Assembly: GCA_043732185.1 (NCBI GenBank)
Contig: JAYTHY010000088.1
Span: forward strand, 3,410-67,409
Source of the DNA: Fibrobacteria bacterium
Lineage (GTDB): Bacteria > Fibrobacterota > Fibrobacteria > UBA11236
Length of the DNA stretch: 64,000 bases
Reading direction: 5' to 3'
Shown here one piece after another: positions 2,791 through 11,387 of this stretch. The position numbers and the translations under genes are program-made. A model generated the notes under the pieces. The model did not search any database. It worked only from the letters and a program-made list of their open reading frames with translations, and was not told the DNA's origin. Positions within the stretch are counted from its first letter, which is position 1. Every line of letters begins with the position of its first letter.

Positions 2791-2875
2791 GTAGGTTTGG
2801 GTCCCCGTCCATGGGGATGCGTCGATGTTCGTTTTTTCTTGAAACGTTTCGCTGAATGTCAGAGACTCAGGGAGC

Positions 2876-3703
2876 ATGAATAAAGTTCCGCAATGCTTCC
2901 TATTCCTTTTCGCCGGATTGTTTTCATTCACACGGACCCAGGGTGAAAGCTTTCGAATTTCCGGACTGGCCGTGGGTATTGGAGACTGGATAAACGTCTC
3001 GGACCGGGATTGGAGCACACGGGAGGATTACGGAACCTTGCCTGCAGCCTCCTTGTATTGGGCTGGGTGGGGCTGGAACGGCAGCTTGGGCGTCCCATTG
3101 AAATCCTCATTCAAACGGATTGGGCATAAGACACGCTACTCGCTAGGTGACGGTGAAATATCGGTGGGGAAGCGAATCGGCGCGTGGTCTCCCAGGATGT
3201 CCCTGAAATTCCCTGCCTATGATTGGTCCGTGGCGCATCCGGGAGTGAACGAACTGTATATCGGAAGTGGCACCTGGGATTTGGCTGTAGGGTTGGGCGG
3301 ACGCATTCCAAATAGCTTTCTCTCCAAGCGGCTTACCCTTCAATTCGACATCGAGGGGTCCACGGTTCTGGCGACCGGATTGGCTGACTACGGTTCGTAC
3401 AAAGGCCTTGGTGCCTTCCAGGCTTCGTATGCTTTGGGCAGCCGTTGGAAGGCAGGGATGACCACACTCTTTCTTTTCGATCACTGGATCTGGATCCCGA
3501 ATTATTGGGATCAGGAGGGAGAAACCAAATTTTCCATTGTACCCGGAGCCGTCGTAGGAGTCAGGATTTTCCAATCCACCTATTTGGATGCTAAAGCCGG
3601 TTGGGGCTTGTATGAATACAAGAAGTTGATCCGTCCAAAGTATGCGACTCTAAGCCAGGACTCATATCACTTCGGCATCTCCATTTATCAAGCTTTCAAA
3701 TGA
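2876..3703 (+). CDS. hypothetical exported protein, possibly an outer-membrane beta-barrel
   Basis: 275 aa with an N-terminal signal-like sequence (CFLFLFAGLFSFTRTQG). Alternating aromatic/Gly-rich strand-like segments run throughout. No recognisable catalytic motif. The 3' end overlaps the convergent DUF2063 gene by 42 nt. Confidence 0.5.
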   Translation: MNKVPQCFLFLFAGLFSFTRTQGESFRISGLAVGIGDWINVSDRDWSTREDYGTLPAASLYWAGWGWNGSLGVPLKSSFKRIGHKTRYSLGDGEISVGKRIGAWSPRMSLKFPAYDWSVAHPGVNELYIGSGTWDLAVGLGGRIPNSFLSKRLTLQFDIEGSTVLATGLADYGSYKGLGAFQASYALGSRWKAGMTTLFLFDHWIWIPNYWDQEGETKFSIVPGAVVGVRIFQSTYLDAKAGWGLYEYKKLIRPKYATLSQDSYHFGISIYQAFK

Positions 3704-4486
3704 AGGCTGCTCGAACCATTTTAGGCGCGTCCAGGTTTCGAACCAAGAGGGAATCTTGGACATCAAAGAGTTTACCTCCGGGGAATCAAGATTTTCGGCC
3801 ACAGCTTCACATGCCAAACCCAGGGGCTGGCCCGCGCGTAGCCTGTTCAACAGGTGGAATGGAATCGGATCCAGTTCTTTCCACTCTACATCATTCCCAT
3901 TTCTAAAAACCGCCCAATAACCCTTCCTGTCCAGGACAATCGGAACTTCATTCTTTTTTTCCTCCAAGGCCGTGCGGCATTCCATCAGGTTCCAGTCCTC
4001 TTCCAGCAGGGAAAAACATGGCTGAAAAACCAGGGAAGTGTCGGCCAGTATTTCCAATTCTCGTGGGGAGAGTTTGCTCGGGTCCAAGGGGAAAACAACA
4101 GGTGCATGAAAGGCATTCAGCATGGCTATTTCCAGGGCAGCGATTTGTATGAGTTGGGGTGTATTGTAAATCACACTGGTTTTTAAAAATTCCACGAACC
4201 CATTGGGCAAGTTTTGGAGATAGGGCGAGCGGGAAGGATGCTGATCCAGAAAGGCCGTTGCAAGTTGATTGAATTTCCAAAGGCCCATGGTCCCGGCCAG
4301 CAGGGGAAAATCCTGTTGGAGAACTGTCATTAGGCGATACCAATATTGCTCATTGTATACCACTAGTCGATCTATTCTGGATTGGAATCGGCCGGTGGAA
4401 AAGGAGAATGGCGTTCGGATCAATTTACCGAATTGTTCCTGGATTAGAACCAGTTCGAGTGGTGGGATCCTTTTTTCCATTTTCAA
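3662..4486 (-). CDS. DUF2063-family protein (MNIO partner, BufC/HvfC-like)
   Basis: 274-aa ORF directly abutting the DUF692 gene. The track start is a TTG at 4486 that overlaps the upstream TGA. An alternative ATG at 4480 lies 2 nt after that stop. Size and position match the DUF2063 partner found next to DUF692 enzymes. The family call is by context plus general sequence character. Confidence 0.65.
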   Translation of the reverse strand: MKMEKRIPPLELVLIQEQFGKLIRTPFSFSTGRFQSRIDRLVVYNEQYWYRLMTVLQQDFPLLAGTMGLWKFNQLATAFLDQHPSRSPYLQNLPNGFVEFLKTSVIYNTPQLIQIAALEIAMLNAFHAPVVFPLDPSKLSPRELEILADTSLVFQPCFSLLEEDWNLMECRTALEEKKNEVPIVLDRKGYWAVFRNGNDVEWKELDPIPFHLLNRLRAGQPLGLACEAVAENLDSPEVNSLMSKIPSWFETWTRLKWFEQPSFESLINGDAEVI

Positions 4487-5304
4487 CAGGCCACCTGGTA
4501 GTCGCGGGCCCGCAGCGCTTCGGCATGCAGCTCTGGAAATGGGGGGATTTTATCATCCCGTTCCAGCAAGGTCGGAAATCCGCCGGAAATATTCCATGCA
4601 TGTCCATACAATTCCCAAACCTCGCGGCGCACTTTTTCCTCATGGGTGTCGAGGAGGGTGCCATCCTGTTTTTCAGTGTGACCGGCGATATGGCATTGTA
4701 AAACTTTGTCCCAGCGAATGGAATCCAGATACCTTCGGGCGTCAAACCCATGATTCACGGAAGAGACGAATACGTTATTGATATCCAGCATGTACCCACA
4801 TCCGGAAAGTTCCACCACTCGATTGTAAAAATCCGATTCTTCCATTTCGCTTTCCTTGAAGCTCGCGTAACTCGATAGATTCTCCAATCCGAAAGGAATG
4901 CCGATGAAATCCTGAACTTCGGAAATCCGTTCTGCTATGTACCGCGCATTTTCCTCCGTGTACGGTACAGGAAGGAGGTCGTGGTGATGGATTCCATGGG
5001 TGGAAGTCCAGCAAAGGTGATCGGTGAAATATGGTGTTGCAGTCATTACGGTGAGAGCTTTCAAACGATCCAAATAGGAATAATCCAAAGGATCAGTTGA
5101 AGCGATGCCCAAGCTGACACCGTGGAGCACGACAGGATAGGTGGAAAGAATTCGCTCAAGATTCCGTTTTGGAAGCGGCGCATCGCCCATGAAGTTTTCC
5201 GATACAATTTCGAAAAATTCCACTTTCGGCCATTCGGAAAAGATGTGGCGGTAATGCGGCAATCGCAAGCCTAGTCCTATAGCGTTTCGTGGAATTCTGT
5301 TCAT
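4483..5304 (-). CDS. DUF692 / multinuclear non-haem iron oxidase (MNIO, MbnB/TglH/BufB family)
   Basis: The blocks GLGLRLPHYRHI...VEFFEIVSENFM...LHGVSLGIAS...YFTDHLCW...HHDLLPVPYTEE are typical of UPF0276/DUF692. I moved the start to the ATG at 5304. The track start at 5463 would overlap the precursor gene by about 100 nt and read through the 13-bp hairpin. Confidence 0.85.
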   Translation of the reverse strand: MNRIPRNAIGLGLRLPHYRHIFSEWPKVEFFEIVSENFMGDAPLPKRNLERILSTYPVVLHGVSLGIASTDPLDYSYLDRLKALTVMTATPYFTDHLCWTSTHGIHHHDLLPVPYTEENARYIAERISEVQDFIGIPFGLENLSSYASFKESEMEESDFYNRVVELSGCGYMLDINNVFVSSVNHGFDARRYLDSIRWDKVLQCHIAGHTEKQDGTLLDTHEEKVRREVWELYGHAWNISGGFPTLLERDDKIPPFPELHAEALRARDYQVAC

Positions 5305-5318
5305 GGAGTTTTCAATAC

Positions 5319-5360
5319 GGCTCCTCCGCTTTACCGCTATCGGATTTAAGCGGAGGAGCC
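5319..5360 (-). promoter_or_regulatory. perfect 13-bp stem / 16-nt loop intercistronic hairpin between the precursor gene and the MNIO gene
   Basis: GGCTCCTCCGCTT (5319-5331) and AAGCGGAGGAGCC (5348-5360) are exact reverse complements. The hairpin lies 6 nt after the precursor stop (5367-5369) and 14 nt before the MNIO ATG (5304). No strong U-tract follows it on the mRNA. Confidence 0.7.
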
Positions 5361-5366
5361 ATTGGT

Positions 5367-5666
5367 TCAGGACTCGATACAGCTCCCGCCCTTGCAGGCG
5401 GAATGGCCTTTGCACTCGTGTTGCGCAACGCCCTTTCCTTCCTGGTAGCTGTGGCCTTTGCACTCATTCAGGGACTGGCACTCATGGGTCTTGAAGGTGC
5501 CCCCCAATTTGGTACACTCCGTTTGGAAGTCGGCCAGGGTCTTGGCTGCGACGATGCCGTTCATAGTCGCTGGCGCGCTGGAAGTACTGTTTTCGCATGC
5601 CGTAAAAGTAAAGCTGCCAGCCATCATTCCTGCGATGGCGAGACGGGTTAGTGATCGCTTATCCAT
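5367..5666 (-). CDS. exported Cys-rich RiPP precursor candidate (bufferin/DUF2282-like), probable lipoprotein signal
   Basis: 99 aa. AAGGAG (5674-5679, minus strand) sits 7 nt upstream of the ATG. The signal peptide MDKRSLTRLAIAGMMAGSFTFTAC has a relaxed lipobox (FTAC). The C-terminal half carries 6 further Cys and a duplicated ECKGHS motif (NECKGHSYQEGKGVAQHECKGHSACKGGSCIES). It lies immediately upstream of the DUF692 and DUF2063 genes. Confidence 0.75.
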   Translation of the reverse strand: MDKRSLTRLAIAGMMAGSFTFTACENSTSSAPATMNGIVAAKTLADFQTECTKLGGTFKTHECQSLNECKGHSYQEGKGVAQHECKGHSACKGGSCIES

Positions 5667-5759
5667 TCTTAATCTCCTTATCAGGAACCCGGAATTGGGT
5701 TCGCCAATGTGTCTTTGTCGTTACGCAAAATGTTTCAAACAAAATGATCGACTCCTTCA

Positions 5760-6407
5760 TCAAAAAGTATTTTCCATGATCGCCTGCGGAAACTGAGACC
5801 GGATTTTTTCGACGATCAAACATCTGGCTCGATGCAGTCTCACCCGGACCAGGGATTTGGTAATGCCCAGTTCGAGTGAGGTTTCTTCACCGCTGAGTCC
5901 CTCGAAATCCCTGAGGTAATGGACGTCACGGTATTTCCTATCTAATTTTGCCGCGGCAAATTCCACCATCCGCACCAGCTCCAATTGCATGAGGACGCTG
6001 TCAGGCAAGGGATCTTTCGATTCAATATTTTCAAGGACATGGGATTGGGTAGTGGGCGAATTTACCTTACGGTATTTTTCGGCCAACTTGTCGCAAATCT
6101 TATGGTAGGCCAGGGAAAAAATCCAGGTGGACAACTTACACCGGCCTTCGAATCCGGGAAGCCCTCGATGCACGGCAATGTAGGTTTCTTGCAGGATCTC
6201 CTCTACGGCGCATGAGTCTGGAAAATATCGATGCACATAGGAGGACAATGGGGCATAGGTTTGGTTGAAAAGGTGGCTGAATGCTCTTTCGCATCCAGGG
6301 GTCTCGGAGCGCACCTCATTCAGGAAAGATGCCGTATTGATCTCCAGGAAAGGTTCGCTCGGTTCGCGAAATTTTTTCCCGGACGCGAAAGATTTGGGTA
6401 CTACCAC
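5760..6407 (-). CDS. ECF-type RNA polymerase sigma-70 family factor
   Basis: 215 aa. The region 2 block EEILQETYIAVHRGLPGFEGRCKLSTWIFSLAYHKICD and the region 4 block RDFEGLSGEETSLELGITKSLVRVRLHRAR are present. It lies 93 nt upstream of the precursor gene on the same strand. Confidence 0.85.
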   Translation of the reverse strand: MVVPKSFASGKKFREPSEPFLEINTASFLNEVRSETPGCERAFSHLFNQTYAPLSSYVHRYFPDSCAVEEILQETYIAVHRGLPGFEGRCKLSTWIFSLAYHKICDKLAEKYRKVNSPTTQSHVLENIESKDPLPDSVLMQLELVRMVEFAAAKLDRKYRDVHYLRDFEGLSGEETSLELGITKSLVRVRLHRARCLIVEKIRSQFPQAIMENTF

Positions 6408-6460: not shown

Positions 6461-6632
6461 TCAATGCCTTTGCATAAGATATCTTTCATAGAAATGCGAT
6501 TCTTCCATTTCCATGCAATATCCGTATTCAAATGTTAACGGCAGTTCCGACGGCCCTATAGCCTTACCTCCACTTGGCGGTTATACTTATCGGGTGCCTT
6601 CGAACCAAAGGTAGGGACAGGAAAATGCAGTT

Positions 6633-7472
6633 ATGAGTCCTTCTACGGTCGAGCCGGATGTCCTCCATTACTCGGATTACCGGACCTTTCTCCGAGATCT
6701 TTATGATTTCAGAAAGTCCCGGCAACCTTCGTTCTCCTACCGGTATTTTGCCCAAAAGGCTGGCATCGGCAGTCCCAACTACCTGAAGCTGGTCATGGAC
6801 GGAGAGCGAAATCTGACCAAAAAAAGCCTGGTGAAATTCCAATCCGCCTTGGGCCTCAAAAGCAGAAGGGCGGAATTCTTCGAGAATTTGGTATTTTTCA
6901 ACCAGGCTACCACAATTTCGGAGCGGAATATCTACTATGAAAACATCCTCAAGGTGCGCACCCGGTCGGGTCTTAGAAAGCTTGAGGAAAACCAGTTCCA
7001 ATTGTTTACGGACTGGCGACATATCGTGATTCGAGAGATGGTGGCGCTTAAGGGGTTTCGGCCGGATCCCCACTGGATACTTCGGAAGTTAGGCAAGGGA
7101 TTCACAGTGAAGCAGATTGAAGAATCACTGGCTCTCCTTTCCAATATGGGGCTCCTCAAACGGACGGCCAACGGTGTCGCCCAAAGTGACGTCAACATTA
7201 CCACCTCCGATGAAGTACGTTCTCTACTGATCAAGAACTATCACCGGCAGATGATGCAAAAGGCTCTCACCGTGCTGGATACTCTGCCCGCCTCCCAAAG
7301 AGACATTTCCAGCATCACCATCCCAATCCATGCCCGGGATTTCATCAAGGTCAAGGAACTCATCCAGCTTATGCGCAAGGAGTTGTTGAATCTGGGTGCT
7401 GATTCCGGTGAGGGCGGAGAAGTGGTGCATATCAATATTCAGCTTTTCCCTCTGACGGGCATGCAGGATTGA
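6633..7472 (+). CDS. TIGR02147-family protein (Fibrobacter-type paralogous family, HTH-like N-terminus)
   Basis: 279 aa. The N-terminal block YSDYRTFLRDLYDFRKSRQPSFSYRYFAQKAGIGSPNYLKLVMDGERNLT is the hallmark of this family. It is clearly paralogous to the ORF at 63039-63914. Confidence 0.75.
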   Translation: MSPSTVEPDVLHYSDYRTFLRDLYDFRKSRQPSFSYRYFAQKAGIGSPNYLKLVMDGERNLTKKSLVKFQSALGLKSRRAEFFENLVFFNQATTISERNIYYENILKVRTRSGLRKLEENQFQLFTDWRHIVIREMVALKGFRPDPHWILRKLGKGFTVKQIEESLALLSNMGLLKRTANGVAQSDVNITTSDEVRSLLIKNYHRQMMQKALTVLDTLPASQRDISSITIPIHARDFIKVKELIQLMRKELLNLGADSGEGGEVVHINIQLFPLTGMQD

Positions 7473-7473
7473 C

Positions 7474-8184
7474 GTGATGCGTTATCGCTTAGTCTGGATG
7501 CTCTTCGCAGGCCTGCTTTCAGGATGCCTATTCGAAAGGCTGGCCGGGACGGAAGTGGGTAACCCTGAAGTTACCGTTTCCGCCCGTTTCGGATTCATTG
7601 GAGCGGACAGTCTTGCCCTTATCTCCAGTATGGATATGATGGTCATGAAAATGGAATATCGCATGCCCGATAGTTCCCGGGACTCGATCTGGAATTACCC
7701 GGCCGGTATGGAGGTGGATCTGGCTTCACCTGTAACCGCGTTGAACCTGCCATCGGTGAAAGTCGCAAGTGCCGGATGGACTTCCGCAGAGTTGATGCTC
7801 GTTGCCAGCTACGGTGACTCGACGTTACCTGATTCGATAGCCTATAAAGACTATTCCAATCCAAGATTTATAAAGCTCATTAAAAAAATGAACGGGGACT
7901 CGATCCGTTTTCTTTTTGAGCTGCCAGAGGGAATGCATATGAAGCTCCAATTCGATTCGAGCAGGTTGCAAAGGTGGCAAACTGGAAACAAAGTTTCCGT
8001 TGAGATCCTCTTCGACTGTGCAAAATGGACTTCGGCGATTTCCGCTCAAGCCTACCAGATTCGTTTGGATGGGGCGGGGAAGCCCTACGTACTGGTCAGC
8101 CCCAGCGAAAACGTAGGACTCCATACGCTCCTGAAATCCCTGTTTCCGCAGTGCTTCCTAGCGGACGGCGCGCAGTTTATGTGA
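7474..8184 (+). CDS. hypothetical lipoprotein
   Basis: 236 aa. A GTG at 7474 or an ATG at 7477 lies 1-4 nt after the upstream stop. The lipobox is LFAGLLSGC. No recognisable domain. Confidence 0.6.
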   Translation: MMRYRLVWMLFAGLLSGCLFERLAGTEVGNPEVTVSARFGFIGADSLALISSMDMMVMKMEYRMPDSSRDSIWNYPAGMEVDLASPVTALNLPSVKVASAGWTSAELMLVASYGDSTLPDSIAYKDYSNPRFIKLIKKMNGDSIRFLFELPEGMHMKLQFDSSRLQRWQTGNKVSVEILFDCAKWTSAISAQAYQIRLDGAGKPYVLVSPSENVGLHTLLKSLFPQCFLADGAQFM

Positions 8185-9549: not shown

Positions 9550-10721
9550 GCGATACCTGCTTTCACTTCAATCTCATCCATTATACTTATCGCAGCCTGG
9601 CGTGCCCAACTATCCGCGCTAAGTACGTCTTTAATATCCGGATTTTGTTTCACACTGGCTGCGTCAAGGACGGCTGACAGAATCACTGGAATATCGGTGA
9701 AACCAACCTTTTCTTCCAGAAAACGGGCTACAACGGCCTCATTGGCGGCATTGAGGATGGCCGGACCAGTACCTCCCAAATGACCAGCGCGATAGGCCAA
9801 GCCTAAACAAGGGAACTTGTCGAGGTCGGGCGCGAAGAATTCCAGTTTGGCCAGCTTGGCCATGTTCAGTCTTTCCACGTTCAAGGGCCAACGCTCCGGA
9901 TAGGAAAGGGCATACTGAATCGGCAGTTGCATATCCGGGCAGCCAAGTTGCGCCATCAAAGATCCATCTTGGAATTGAACGAAGGAATGAATAATGGATG
10001 TTGGATGAATGGTCACTTTGATTTTAGCGAATTCCACCCCAAACAAATAATGGGCTTCAATGACCTCCAAGCCTTTGTTCATCAGTGTGGCAGAATCAAT
10101 CGTGATTTTTTCGCCCATCACCCAAGTGGGATGTTTTAAGGCGTCGGATTTGCGAATGGATGCGAAGGTATCTTTCGGTCTTTCGCGAAATGGGCCACCG
10201 GAAGCCGTAAGCTCAATGTGTTCGACTTCGGAAATGGGTCGTCCTGCCATACATTGAAAAATCGCGGAATGTTCCGAATCAATGGGAATCAATTGACTGG
10301 CCGGATGGCTTCGCAAAGCTGAATTGATAATTTCGCCCGCCATCACCATGGTCTCTTTATTTGCCAGTCCAACATGTTTGCCCCGGCGGATGGCCTCAAG
10401 AGTCGGCTGGCAACCGATTGCGCCCACCAGCCCGTTGAGGACATAATCCACTTCGGTTAGGGAAACCAGTTCCAATAATCCGTCCATTCCCTCCAAAACT
10501 CTAATCGAAGTCTTCTGGCGCATTCGCGCAGCCGCATCCGCATCAAAGACACAGACAATCTTGATTTTGAATTCGTCGATGATGGGCAATAACTTTTCCC
10601 ATTGCCGCCCAACCGCCACACCTACCAACCGGAAGCGGTCGGGATGCTGGCGGAAAACCTTGAGGGCATTCATACCAATGGAACCGGTAGCGCCCAGCAA
10701 GGCGATATTCTTCTTATGCAT
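9546..10721 (-). CDS. dxr: 1-deoxy-D-xylulose-5-phosphate reductoisomerase
   Basis: LLGATGSIGMNAL NADPH-binding motif, PIDSEHSAIFQC and LTASGGPFR blocks. Confidence 0.95.
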   Translation of the reverse strand: MHKKNIALLGATGSIGMNALKVFRQHPDRFRLVGVAVGRQWEKLLPIIDEFKIKIVCVFDADAAARMRQKTSIRVLEGMDGLLELVSLTEVDYVLNGLVGAIGCQPTLEAIRRGKHVGLANKETMVMAGEIINSALRSHPASQLIPIDSEHSAIFQCMAGRPISEVEHIELTASGGPFRERPKDTFASIRKSDALKHPTWVMGEKITIDSATLMNKGLEVIEAHYLFGVEFAKIKVTIHPTSIIHSFVQFQDGSLMAQLGCPDMQLPIQYALSYPERWPLNVERLNMAKLAKLEFFAPDLDKFPCLGLAYRAGHLGGTGPAILNAANEAVVARFLEEKVGFTDIPVILSAVLDAASVKQNPDIKDVLSADSWARQAAISIMDEIEVKAGIA

Positions 10722-10901: not shown

Positions 10902-11387
10902 ATGCTGTATTCTAGCACCAAACTTAGCTGGACCTTGGCGATTGGATTGTTCTTGTCCGCCTGCGATTTGACGCAATTGACGAAATCAAGTTCGACGGAC
11001 ACCGTAGCGCAGCCCAAAACTGAAGCCACCGTAATTGGCATTTGGAGGGCCAATATTCCCGTTTCCGCCACCCCTCCTACCGACATCAAAGTGACTATGG
11101 ATATTGGAAGCGACCATACCATGTTGTTGTCCTATCGGGTGGCAACGGGTAAACCGTCCCCGTATGATTATCTGGAGATAAAAAAGGAATACTCGACGTG
11201 GACAGTGTCCGATGGTAATTTATCCAGCGTTAAAACCCATTGTGAGTATAAAGATCAGACCACCGGTTTGGCGACGGCGGAAGTGGACTGCCGGGCACCC
11301 ATAGAAGAATCCCATGATATCAATGTCAAAGGCGGAGCATGGACCCTCATAATAGAGGGCGCGCCGCTAGTTTTCAATAAACGATGA
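10902..11387 (+). CDS. hypothetical lipoprotein
   Basis: 161 aa with lipobox LFLSAC. It is the only plus-strand gene inside the minus-strand cdsA...dxr block. Confidence 0.55.
   Translation: MLYSSTKLSWTLAIGLFLSACDLTQLTKSSSTDTVAQPKTEATVIGIWRANIPVSATPPTDIKVTMDIGSDHTMLLSYRVATGKPSPYDYLEIKKEYSTWTVSDGNLSSVKTHCEYKDQTTGLATAEVDCRAPIEESHDINVKGGAWTLIIEGAPLVFNKR

Follow-up and report, generated by a model that had tools for sequence, protein, structure and literature searches.

The window, which is the whole 64-kb stretch of DNA analysed here, carries a compact cluster of four genes on one strand, arranged in the order ECF sigma factor, precursor peptide, MNIO enzyme and DUF2063 partner protein, which is met from the other side by the gene for a secreted 275-aa protein. 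The features of the locus are as follows.

2840..2866, (+) strand: promoter-like motif TGAAAC-N18-GAC, whose end is 10 nt upstream of the start codon (ATG) of the 275-aa gene.
2876..3703, (+) strand: gene for the secreted 275-aa protein, convergent with the partner gene; homologues lie beside the cluster elsewhere.
3662..4486, (-) strand: gene for the DUF2063/HvfC-type partner (Pfam PF09836, 2.7e-16), whose start overlaps the MNIO stop codon.
4483..5304, (-) strand: gene for the MNIO (DUF692) enzyme of 273 aa (Pfam PF05114, 4.6e-97; NCBIfam BufB), with its ATG at 5304.
5319..5360, (-) strand: strong stem-loop between the precursor stop and the MNIO start, without a U-tract.
5367..5666, (-) strand: whole precursor gene, 99 codons plus stop, from the open reading frame and its translation.
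5370..5558, (-) strand: conserved six-Cys core, residues 37-99, with six invariant Cys and H61, an internal repeat at a shift of 22 and an hhalign match to the P0057 family.
Residues 25-36 of the same gene, (-) strand: variable S/T-rich tether between Cys24 and the core.
5595..5597, (-) strand: Cys24, the lipobox +1 Cys, predicted diacylglyceryl site and mature N-terminus, invariant in 57/57 sequences.
5598..5666, (-) strand: predicted signal peptide, residues 1-23, with n-region MDKRSLTR, h-region LAIAGMMAGSF and F-T-A at lipobox positions -3 to -1 (PROSITE PS51257-type pattern).
5674..5679, (-) strand: Shine-Dalgarno sequence AAGGAG, read from the sequence, spaced 7 nt from the ATG (5664-5666).
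5685..5702, (-) strand: 5' UTR hairpin (GAACCC-AATTCC-GGGTTC), downstream of the putative -10 element and ahead of the ribosome-binding site.
5711..5737, (-) strand: ECF-type promoter-like motif TGAAAC-N18-GAC, 23 nt past the sigma stop and ~70 nt before the precursor ATG.
5760..6407, (-) strand: gene for an ECF-type sigma-70 family factor (Pfam Sigma70_r2 and r4_2; NCBIfam TIGR02937 sigma70-ECF, 79.7 bits against a cut-off of 42.9).

The precursor gene is real and well conserved. Its product of 99 aa, which begins MDKRSLTRLAIAGMMAGSFTFTAC..., has Cys at residues 24, 51, 63, 69, 85, 91 and 96 and His at residues 61, 72, 83 and 88. The first-pass annotation had described a 99-aa precursor behind a strong ribosome-binding site, with exactly six Cys after that of the lipobox, two copies of ECKGHS followed by ACKGGSC, and a Cys-free EGKG element, and each of these is found in the sequence. 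Specifically, the gene reads from 5666 to 5367 behind the AAGGAG, six Cys follow Cys24, ECKGHS occupies residues 68-73 (window 5448-5465) and 84-89 (5400-5417), ACKGGSC residues 90-96 and EGKG residues 76-79. The two ECKGHS copies are identical at 15 of 18 nucleotides, and any repeated 6-mer in the mature part arose in 42 of 200,000 shuffles. No second copy of the peptide or of its P0057 paralogue was found elsewhere in the 64-kb window. The AlphaFold model of the peptide is of low confidence (pLDDT 60), and a PDB fold search with this model returned nothing at E < 0.8.

Two homologue searches recovered 56 relatives of about 100 aa each, none of which carries a Pfam domain or an informative name; wherever a source name or a genome-scan match is available, they come from Fibrobacterota metagenome-assembled genomes (MAGs). 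The closest genome is the MAG Fibrobacteria bacterium GFS_11904, in which the peptide is 96% identical and the neighboring genes are 94-99% identical. Across the alignment of the window peptide and its 56 homologues, Cys24, C51, C63, C69, C85, C91, C96, H61, Gly71 and Gly93 are invariant. The His of the H-[DE]-C element is likewise retained in both of its positions (H61 in 57/57, H83 in 54/57), and conservation is lower for the His of KGHS (H72, 51/57; H88, 34/57). Comparison of the family with itself at internal shifts scores a shift of 22 residues best (44.7), followed by 16 (26.4) and 6 (14.9), and the conserved unit of the core is H-[DE]-C-x5-C-x-G, present in two copies 22 residues apart. 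The earlier proposal of ECKGHS as the duplicated core motif does not survive this comparison, as its exact duplication is confined to 12 of the 57 members and corresponds to the second-ranking shift of 16. As the defining repeat it was rejected, since it pairs Cys69 with Cys85 out of register, and the 22-residue register is preferred. The duplication of ECKGHS amounts to a clade-level coincidence of two CKG units. A single EGKG occurs in the window peptide, within the loop that joins the two H-x-C-x5-C-x-G units.

The sequence comparisons indicate that this core is most likely a divergent relative of BufA2, the precursor of the six-Cys Buf2 bufferins, which falls below the NCBI cut-off and is linked to it through profile comparisons. 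BufA2 (NF050166) is the sole core family matched consistently: the window peptide reaches 16.7 bits and 51 of the 57 members reach 11-25 bits with a best E of 1.1e-5, scores of which none nears the cut-off of 60. These direct matches are weak, and the comparison combines the NCBIfam model with a bridge through a second Fibrobacterota family, recovered by a homologue search seeded with the paralogue P0057. This P0057-like family occurs in the same Fibrobacterota MAGs and carries H-x-C-K-G-x-N-x-C-K-G-x-G-G-C twice; 37 of its 38 members match BufA2, with a best E of 3.4e-19. In turn, hhalign aligns the core with the P0057 family at 95.5% probability (E 1.6e-8), placing Cys63 and Cys69 on the first P0057 unit and Cys85 and Cys91 on the second. 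Buf2 precursors (BUF_6/12Cys) have six or twelve conserved Cys, and all six core Cys are present in 57/57 members. When the core by itself was used for an exhaustive profile search, it retrieved 112 cluster representatives at E <= 1e-3, among them proteins with 2-5 tandem domains and many GC-rich sequences, and a tblastn search of plasmids for a BufA2 sequence found nothing. The first-pass annotation had also called for a comparison with DUF2282, whose ordinary members are standard bufferin precursors; PF10048 matches none of the 57 members, although hits were accepted up to an E-value of 1, so the peptide is not a DUF2282 protein. All 57 members thus escape the curated models, lying below the BufA2 cut-off and being without a Pfam domain.

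The adjoining enzyme points in the same direction. Among the MNIO subfamilies of NCBIfam, BufB (NF050167) is its best match by a wide margin, at 307.9 bits, yet 2 bits under the cut-off of 310, and HvfB follows at 251.7 bits (cut-off 360); the closest solved structure is the DUF692 protein 3bww (7.5e-48). Translation most likely starts at the ATG at 5304, which gives 273 aa as in the homologue at locus L001, and a longer reading frame from a GTG at 5463, which overlaps the precursor gene, is probably not used. These scores bear on a further reading, in which the gene would be a degenerate oxazolin precursor of the HvfA type and EGKG a decayed EGKCG repeat. Such an origin would account for the EGKG at residues 76-79 and for the sole NCBIfam match of the partner protein, which is HvfC (63 bits against a cut-off of 142), but the precursor contains no EGKCG, its lone EGKG lies in the inter-unit loop, the BufB score of the enzyme (307.9) exceeds its HvfB score (251.7), and the core links to BufA2 and to no oxazolin model. 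We therefore regard an oxazolin origin as highly improbable, and the kinship of EGKG with the EGKCG repeat that had been suggested for it is not borne out.

For comparison with the window, 11 related loci were retrieved by way of the peptide families. The order precursor, MNIO and DUF2063 partner, with short gaps, recurs in 10 of these 12 loci (the window and 9 of the 11), and because at one of them, L011 from Polyangiaceae, a relative from the core search precedes the MNIO and DUF2063 genes, it spans two phyla. Together with the adjoining MNIO gene of the window, this order upholds the earlier assignment of the peptide as an MNIO substrate precursor. No DoxX gene lies downstream of the partner gene at the window locus. 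A TIGR02147 ("Fsuc_second") gene beside the cluster suggests a Fibrobacterota origin, in line with the source names of the homologues.

It is conceivable that the peptide acts instead as a Cys/His-rich lipoprotein metallochaperone through its native thiolates, without being a true RiPP, the MNIO pair being dispensable or acting elsewhere. Two of the loci fit this idea, in that no MNIO gene was found near the peptide within the stretch fetched: L003, which has the sigma gene and the peptide, and L004, which has the peptide and the 275-aa gene. A paralogous family follows the same pattern, since its member P0177 is the last gene of an operon encoding OEP, CusB(HMBD), CzcB and RND components (Cus/Czc-type efflux) without an MNIO gene. 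However, the absence at L003 and L004 covers only 16 kb of these long contigs, bufferin precursors are often encoded as orphans that are presumably modified in trans (PMC12452194), and the precursor-MNIO-DUF2063 order is kept with short gaps in 10/12 loci across two phyla. The use of native thiolates is thus quite unlikely.

A second set of findings concerns the N-terminus, which was judged in the 57-sequence alignment by a PROSITE PS51257-type rule that asks for a positively charged n-region, a hydrophobic h-region and then a lipobox with its +1 Cys. The window peptide satisfies the rule, as do 55 of the 57 members overall; the two exceptions are one mis-called long N-terminus and one C-I-G-A-C variant. 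Within the lipobox (consensus L-[TS]-[AG]-C), position -1 is A or G in 57/57 and position -3 is L in 46/57, and the F of the window peptide occurs at -3 in 2/57. Profile comparisons agree with the rule: in the PDB the family profile matches nothing but AcrA, in two versions of its chain, and does so via the signal peptide and lipobox of this proven lipoprotein, and the NCBIfam matches other than BufA2 are exclusively to lipoprotein N-termini, namely EexN (21 members), AcrA (15), TrbK (5), QseG and GldJ, of which those to EexN and AcrA are weak and secondary. In addition, at least 57 of 104 distant representatives retain a lipobox, and their cores differ. The reading of the N-terminus as a lipoprotein signal, which the first-pass annotation had proposed, is therefore well supported as a prediction by rule and profile matches. 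Canonical lipoboxes also occur in other proteins encoded in the window (L-S-G-C at 7474, L-S-A-C at 10902).

The main competitor to a lipoprotein is a soluble periplasmic bufferin that is cleaved by SPase I and carries no lipid, with Cys24 as a free N-terminus or a seventh functional Cys. The consensus L-T-A|C could indeed fit the SPase I rule at -3 and -1, at the very same bond, and most characterized bufferins are SPI substrates (PMC12452194, PMC11626156). Against this stand the invariance of Cys24 (57/57) with A or G at -1 throughout, the persistence of the lipobox in distant representatives whose cores differ, the F at -3 of the window peptide, which disfavors SPase I, and the fact that the profile matches are to true lipoprotein signals. 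A soluble product is accordingly judged unlikely, and a lipid-anchored one remains the preferred reading.

The membrane in which such a lipopeptide would reside is less readily predicted. In E. coli, an acidic residue at +2 suggests retention in the inner membrane, and in the peptide family positions +2 and +3 after Cys24 are mostly E or D and then D, K or N. By the rules for Bacteroidota, acidic residues following the Cys suggest surface exposure (PMC13056109), so that the two sets of rules point to different destinations for the same sequence.

The first-pass annotation had, furthermore, considered lipidation to be undescribed for MNIO substrates, a claim to novelty that no longer holds because of two recent publications. 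Antoine et al. 2025 predicted lipoprotein signals for ~16% of Buf2 bufferins (PMC12452194), and a 2026 PNAS study demonstrated triacylated MNIO products, which it named DAG-RiPPs, and in its genome mining listed bufferins as one of the MNIO-modified families that have SPII signals (PMC13056109). The window peptide is thus most likely a divergent further member of the lipidated MNIO peptides, a kind that was predicted in 2025 and for which related families were demonstrated in 2026.

The regions flanking the precursor gene suggest how its expression may be controlled. A homologous sigma gene lies directly upstream of the peptide gene in 7 of the 12 loci, including L003, which has no MNIO gene in the stretch fetched, and no anti-sigma gene is adjacent to the sigma gene of the window. 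In 8 of 11 loci the motif [TG][GT][AT]AAC-N17/18-GAC precedes the precursor ATG by 69-76 nt, and in a ninth the distance is 93 nt, against a background elsewhere in the loci of about 1 per 11 kb per strand. The exact form TGAAAC-N16-18-GAC has only 3 matches in the 64-kb window, one of them the site before the 275-aa gene. The motif is similar to known ECF promoters, for instance that of B. subtilis sigma-W (TGAAAC-N16-CGTA), and from this resemblance we infer that an ECF sigma factor acts on it. Autoregulation of the sigma gene through the same motif was considered and rejected, as TGAAAC-N-GAC was not found upstream of the sigma gene itself, where a different conserved element, GTTAAC-A-w-w-TG-n-ATACGGA, is located.

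Two RNA hairpins accompany this promoter-like motif. The hairpin in the 5' UTR recurs at the same place in 9 of 10 loci, with 5-7 bp and stems that covary in sequence, and its folding z is <= -2.6 in 7 loci (mean z -2.4). The stem-loop after the precursor stop folds at -32.5 to -35.2 kcal/mol (z -6.9 to -7.4), and L001, L007 and L008 have a similar hairpin, which L009 and L010 lack. Both hairpins may serve as devices for high and stable expression of the precursor.

The same promoter-like motif connects the cluster to its unclassified neighbor. It is found upstream of the homologue of the 275-aa gene in 5 of 5 loci checked, and at L004 both promoters have the variant TGTAAC. Homologues of the 275-aa protein, 41-98% identical, adjoin the cluster in L001/L014, L006, L007, L008 and L015; at L004 the homologue stands beside a stand-alone peptide gene, and with this locus included the 275-aa gene keeps company with the cluster in 7 independent loci. 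A metagenome scan starting from the 275-aa protein yielded two loci only, one of which duplicates L001. The protein has a predicted signal of the SPI type, and its C-terminus reads ...YQAFK, that of two homologues ...QGF; it has no match in Pfam, NCBIfam or PDB sequences, and its single-sequence structure model (pLDDT 32) is unusable. It is possibly an outer-membrane beta-barrel.

Because the promoter type is shared and the 275-aa gene lies beside the peptide gene even without MNIO genes, the two products can be considered as a pair. We tentatively raise the possibility, with more doubt than confidence, that the lipidated bufferin and the secreted 275-aa protein are two halves of one ECF-controlled envelope module. 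The candidate barrel could then present the lipopeptide on the cell surface, retain it in the outer membrane, or donate metal to it or accept metal from it. If true, this pairing would represent a novel use of a RiPP metallophore within a diderm envelope.

Taken together, the gene is likely to encode a bufferin precursor of the Buf2 (six-Cys) type that is divergent, specific to Fibrobacterota and equipped with a lipoprotein signal peptide. From the observed gene, its conserved family, lipobox and operon, and from the common promoter motif and hairpins, we infer the following course for the chemistry, lipidation, metal and membrane of the product. Transcription from the TGAAAC-N18-GAC promoter would depend on an ECF sigma factor, probably the product of the gene directly upstream; the transcript would open with a stabilizing hairpin and carry the strong ribosome-binding site, and the large hairpin after the stop codon would probably keep the precursor mRNA in excess of the enzyme mRNA. 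Modification would precede export, because the enzymes are without a signal peptide: in the cytoplasm, the MNIO and its DUF2063 partner would turn Cys63, Cys69, Cys85 and Cys91, the Cys of the C-x-G units, into 5-thiooxazoles. Cys51 and Cys96 would form a disulfide after export. Both assignments follow by analogy from Caulobacter Buf2, in which a disulfide links Cys I to Cys VI, the four Cys between them (II-V) become 5-thiooxazoles with a loss of 4 Da apiece, and a role in copper handling is reported (PMC11626156).

Subsequently, as predicted from the lipobox, the peptide would be exported by Sec, Lgt would attach diacylglycerol to Cys24 and LspA would cleave before it, and N-acylation by Lnt may follow; cytoplasmic modification followed by this Lgt/LspA/Lnt pathway has been shown for DybA and NedA (PMC13056109). 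The mature lipopeptide of 76 residues would sit on the membrane through its short S/T-rich tether and bind copper or another soft metal through its thiooxazoles, His61 and His83 possibly helping. The proposed role in metal binding draws on the homology to bufferins, the ECF-type control and the P0177 paralogue that ends an RND efflux operon.

The predicted product resembles several known systems and differs from each of them. With Buf2 of Caulobacter vibrioides (CCNA_03001, BufB2, BufC2) it shares a small precursor that is exported and has six conserved Cys in H-x-C-x-G-x-N-x-C-K-G-type units, and an A-B-C gene order with a BufB-like MNIO and a DUF2063 partner but no DoxX. The Caulobacter buf2 cluster, which also lacks DoxX, is under ECF control by SigF (PMC11626156), a likeness that in the window is suggested by the promoter motif alone. 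Unlike in Caulobacter BufA2, in which the Cys span 27 residues (Cys24 to Cys50; PMC11626156), they span 46 residues in the window peptide, and Cys I of its core lies in a preceding helix. Whereas ~16% of Buf2 bufferins have a predicted lipoprotein signal (PMC12452194), the lipobox Cys is invariant in the window family. The sigma gene, moreover, lies inside the window cluster without an NrsF anti-sigma partner, whereas sigma and anti-sigma genes have been reported in Buf1 and not in Buf2 clusters (PMC12452194), and the window cluster additionally has the conserved 275-aa neighbor gene.

The DAG-RiPPs, comprising the chryseobasin-like lipo-DybA and the oxazolin lipo-NedA (PMC13056109), share with the window peptide an MNIO precursor whose signal peptide ends in a lipobox, and the same sequence of cytoplasmic modification and Lgt/LspA/Lnt processing is predicted for the latter. 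In contrast to them, the window peptide comes from Fibrobacterota and is predicted to bear thiooxazoles on four Cys and not a ChrH-type macrocycle or modified EGKCG sites; the lipidation of bufferins in that study is likewise predicted and not experimental (PMC13056109). Buf1 (DUF2282, PF10048) has the same enzyme pair, general role and ECF sigma-linked clusters, but the window family has six Cys and not four and is without DoxX, NrsF and DUF2282. The P0057-type paralogues, finally, have homologous Cys units and in some cases a lipobox, but their resemblance to BufA2 is stronger, both SPI and SPII signals occur among them, and at least one member lies in an RND efflux operon with no adjoining MNIO gene.

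The Fibrobacterota family leaves the current picture of MNIO RiPPs unchanged. Three features of the loci may nevertheless be new: the ECF-type promoter motif that is common to the peptide operon and the 275-aa gene, the conserved hairpins before and after the precursor gene, and the occurrence of a paralogous peptide family in a Cus-type efflux operon. The findings extend bufferin-type metallophores into Fibrobacterota through a family that curated models miss, and they offer a clean natural test case for the lipidation of bufferins, which so far has been predicted only. Additionally, the promoter motif and the unclassified neighbor provide a testable lead on where in the envelope such lipopeptides are located.

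The motif TGAAAC-N17/18-GAC, a putative ECF-type promoter element, is common in the window to the precursor operon and to a conserved gene that encodes a secreted protein of 275 aa and runs convergent to the cluster. This protein has no match in Pfam, NCBIfam or PDB, and homologues are present in related loci, including the five listed below.

The 275-aa secreted protein gene, its motif and its homologues
2876-3703, plus strand: 275-aa secreted protein gene
2840-2866, plus strand: TGAAAC-N17/18-GAC motif upstream of it
L001 6328-7152: homologue
L004 8375-9220: homologue
L006 7967-8791: homologue
L008 4862-5674: homologue
L015 196-948: homologue

Members of the precursor family also occur as orphans in two loci, neither of which carries an MNIO gene within the 16 kb examined at each. 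Specifically, the stand-alone peptide gene of L004 adjoins the homologue of the 275-aa gene, which is its sole pairing, and in L003 a sigma gene is followed by the peptide gene and then by a FecR/PEGA/TPR gene.

Orphan precursor genes
L003 8001-8324: precursor gene
L004 8001-8321: precursor gene

A third exact match to the TGAAAC-N-GAC motif lies within the dxr 3' end, a short distance upstream of the site-2 protease gene rseP. As it recurs elsewhere only in L006, a near-identical locus, this match may be a chance occurrence.

Third motif match
9627-9652, minus strand: TGAAAC-N-GAC within the dxr 3' end

The same Fibrobacterota metagenome-assembled genomes contain a second Cys-rich family (alignment A5) with two copies of H-x-C-K-G-x-N-x-C-K-G-x-G-G-C, which is nearer than the precursor family to BufA2, the NCBIfam model of six-Cys Buf2 bufferins. 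Its signals are mixed, with a lipobox in some members and an SPI-type signal in others. One member, P0177, is encoded by the final gene of an efflux operon (OEP, CusB(HMBD), CzcB, RND efflux), and no MNIO gene was found near this operon in L012.

Member of the second Cys-rich family
L012 6001-6327: P0177

Two hairpins flank the precursor gene. The upstream one, which follows the putative -10 element and precedes the ribosome-binding site, keeps its position in nine of ten loci with differing stem sequences, and may stabilise the 5' end of the precursor mRNA. The downstream stem-loop lies past the stop codon of the precursor gene and ahead of the start codon of the MNIO gene. It is very stable, with a folding energy of -32.5 to -35.2 kcal/mol and a z of about -7, and lacks a U-tract; counterparts are kept in L001, L007 and L008, and not in L009 or L010.

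Hairpins around the precursor gene
5685-5702, minus strand: short hairpin
5319-5360, minus strand: stem-loop

The mechanically listed MNIO reading frame (4483-5463, minus strand) opens at a GTG and overlaps the precursor gene, and its Pfam domain begins at residue 62; homologues begin at the position of the ATG at 5304. This ATG has no obvious ribosome-binding site, and a GGAGGAG stands 16 nt upstream of it, within the 3' arm of the 5319-5360 stem-loop.

Upstream of the sigma gene, the region that separates it from a divergent TIGR02147/DUF4423 gene holds a further conserved element, distinct from the TGAAAC motif and found in the window, L002, L003, L008 and L010. This element could be an operator or the promoter of the sigma gene itself. 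The TIGR02147/DUF4423 gene and its neighbour, which encodes a 236-aa lipobox protein (L-S-G-C), are syntenic in L002, L003, L006, L008 and L010, which could reflect a functional link or mere shared ancestry.

Features upstream of the sigma gene
about 6500-6535, minus strand: GTTAAC-A-w-w-TG-n-ATACGGA
6633-8184, plus strand: TIGR02147/DUF4423 gene and 236-aa lipobox protein gene
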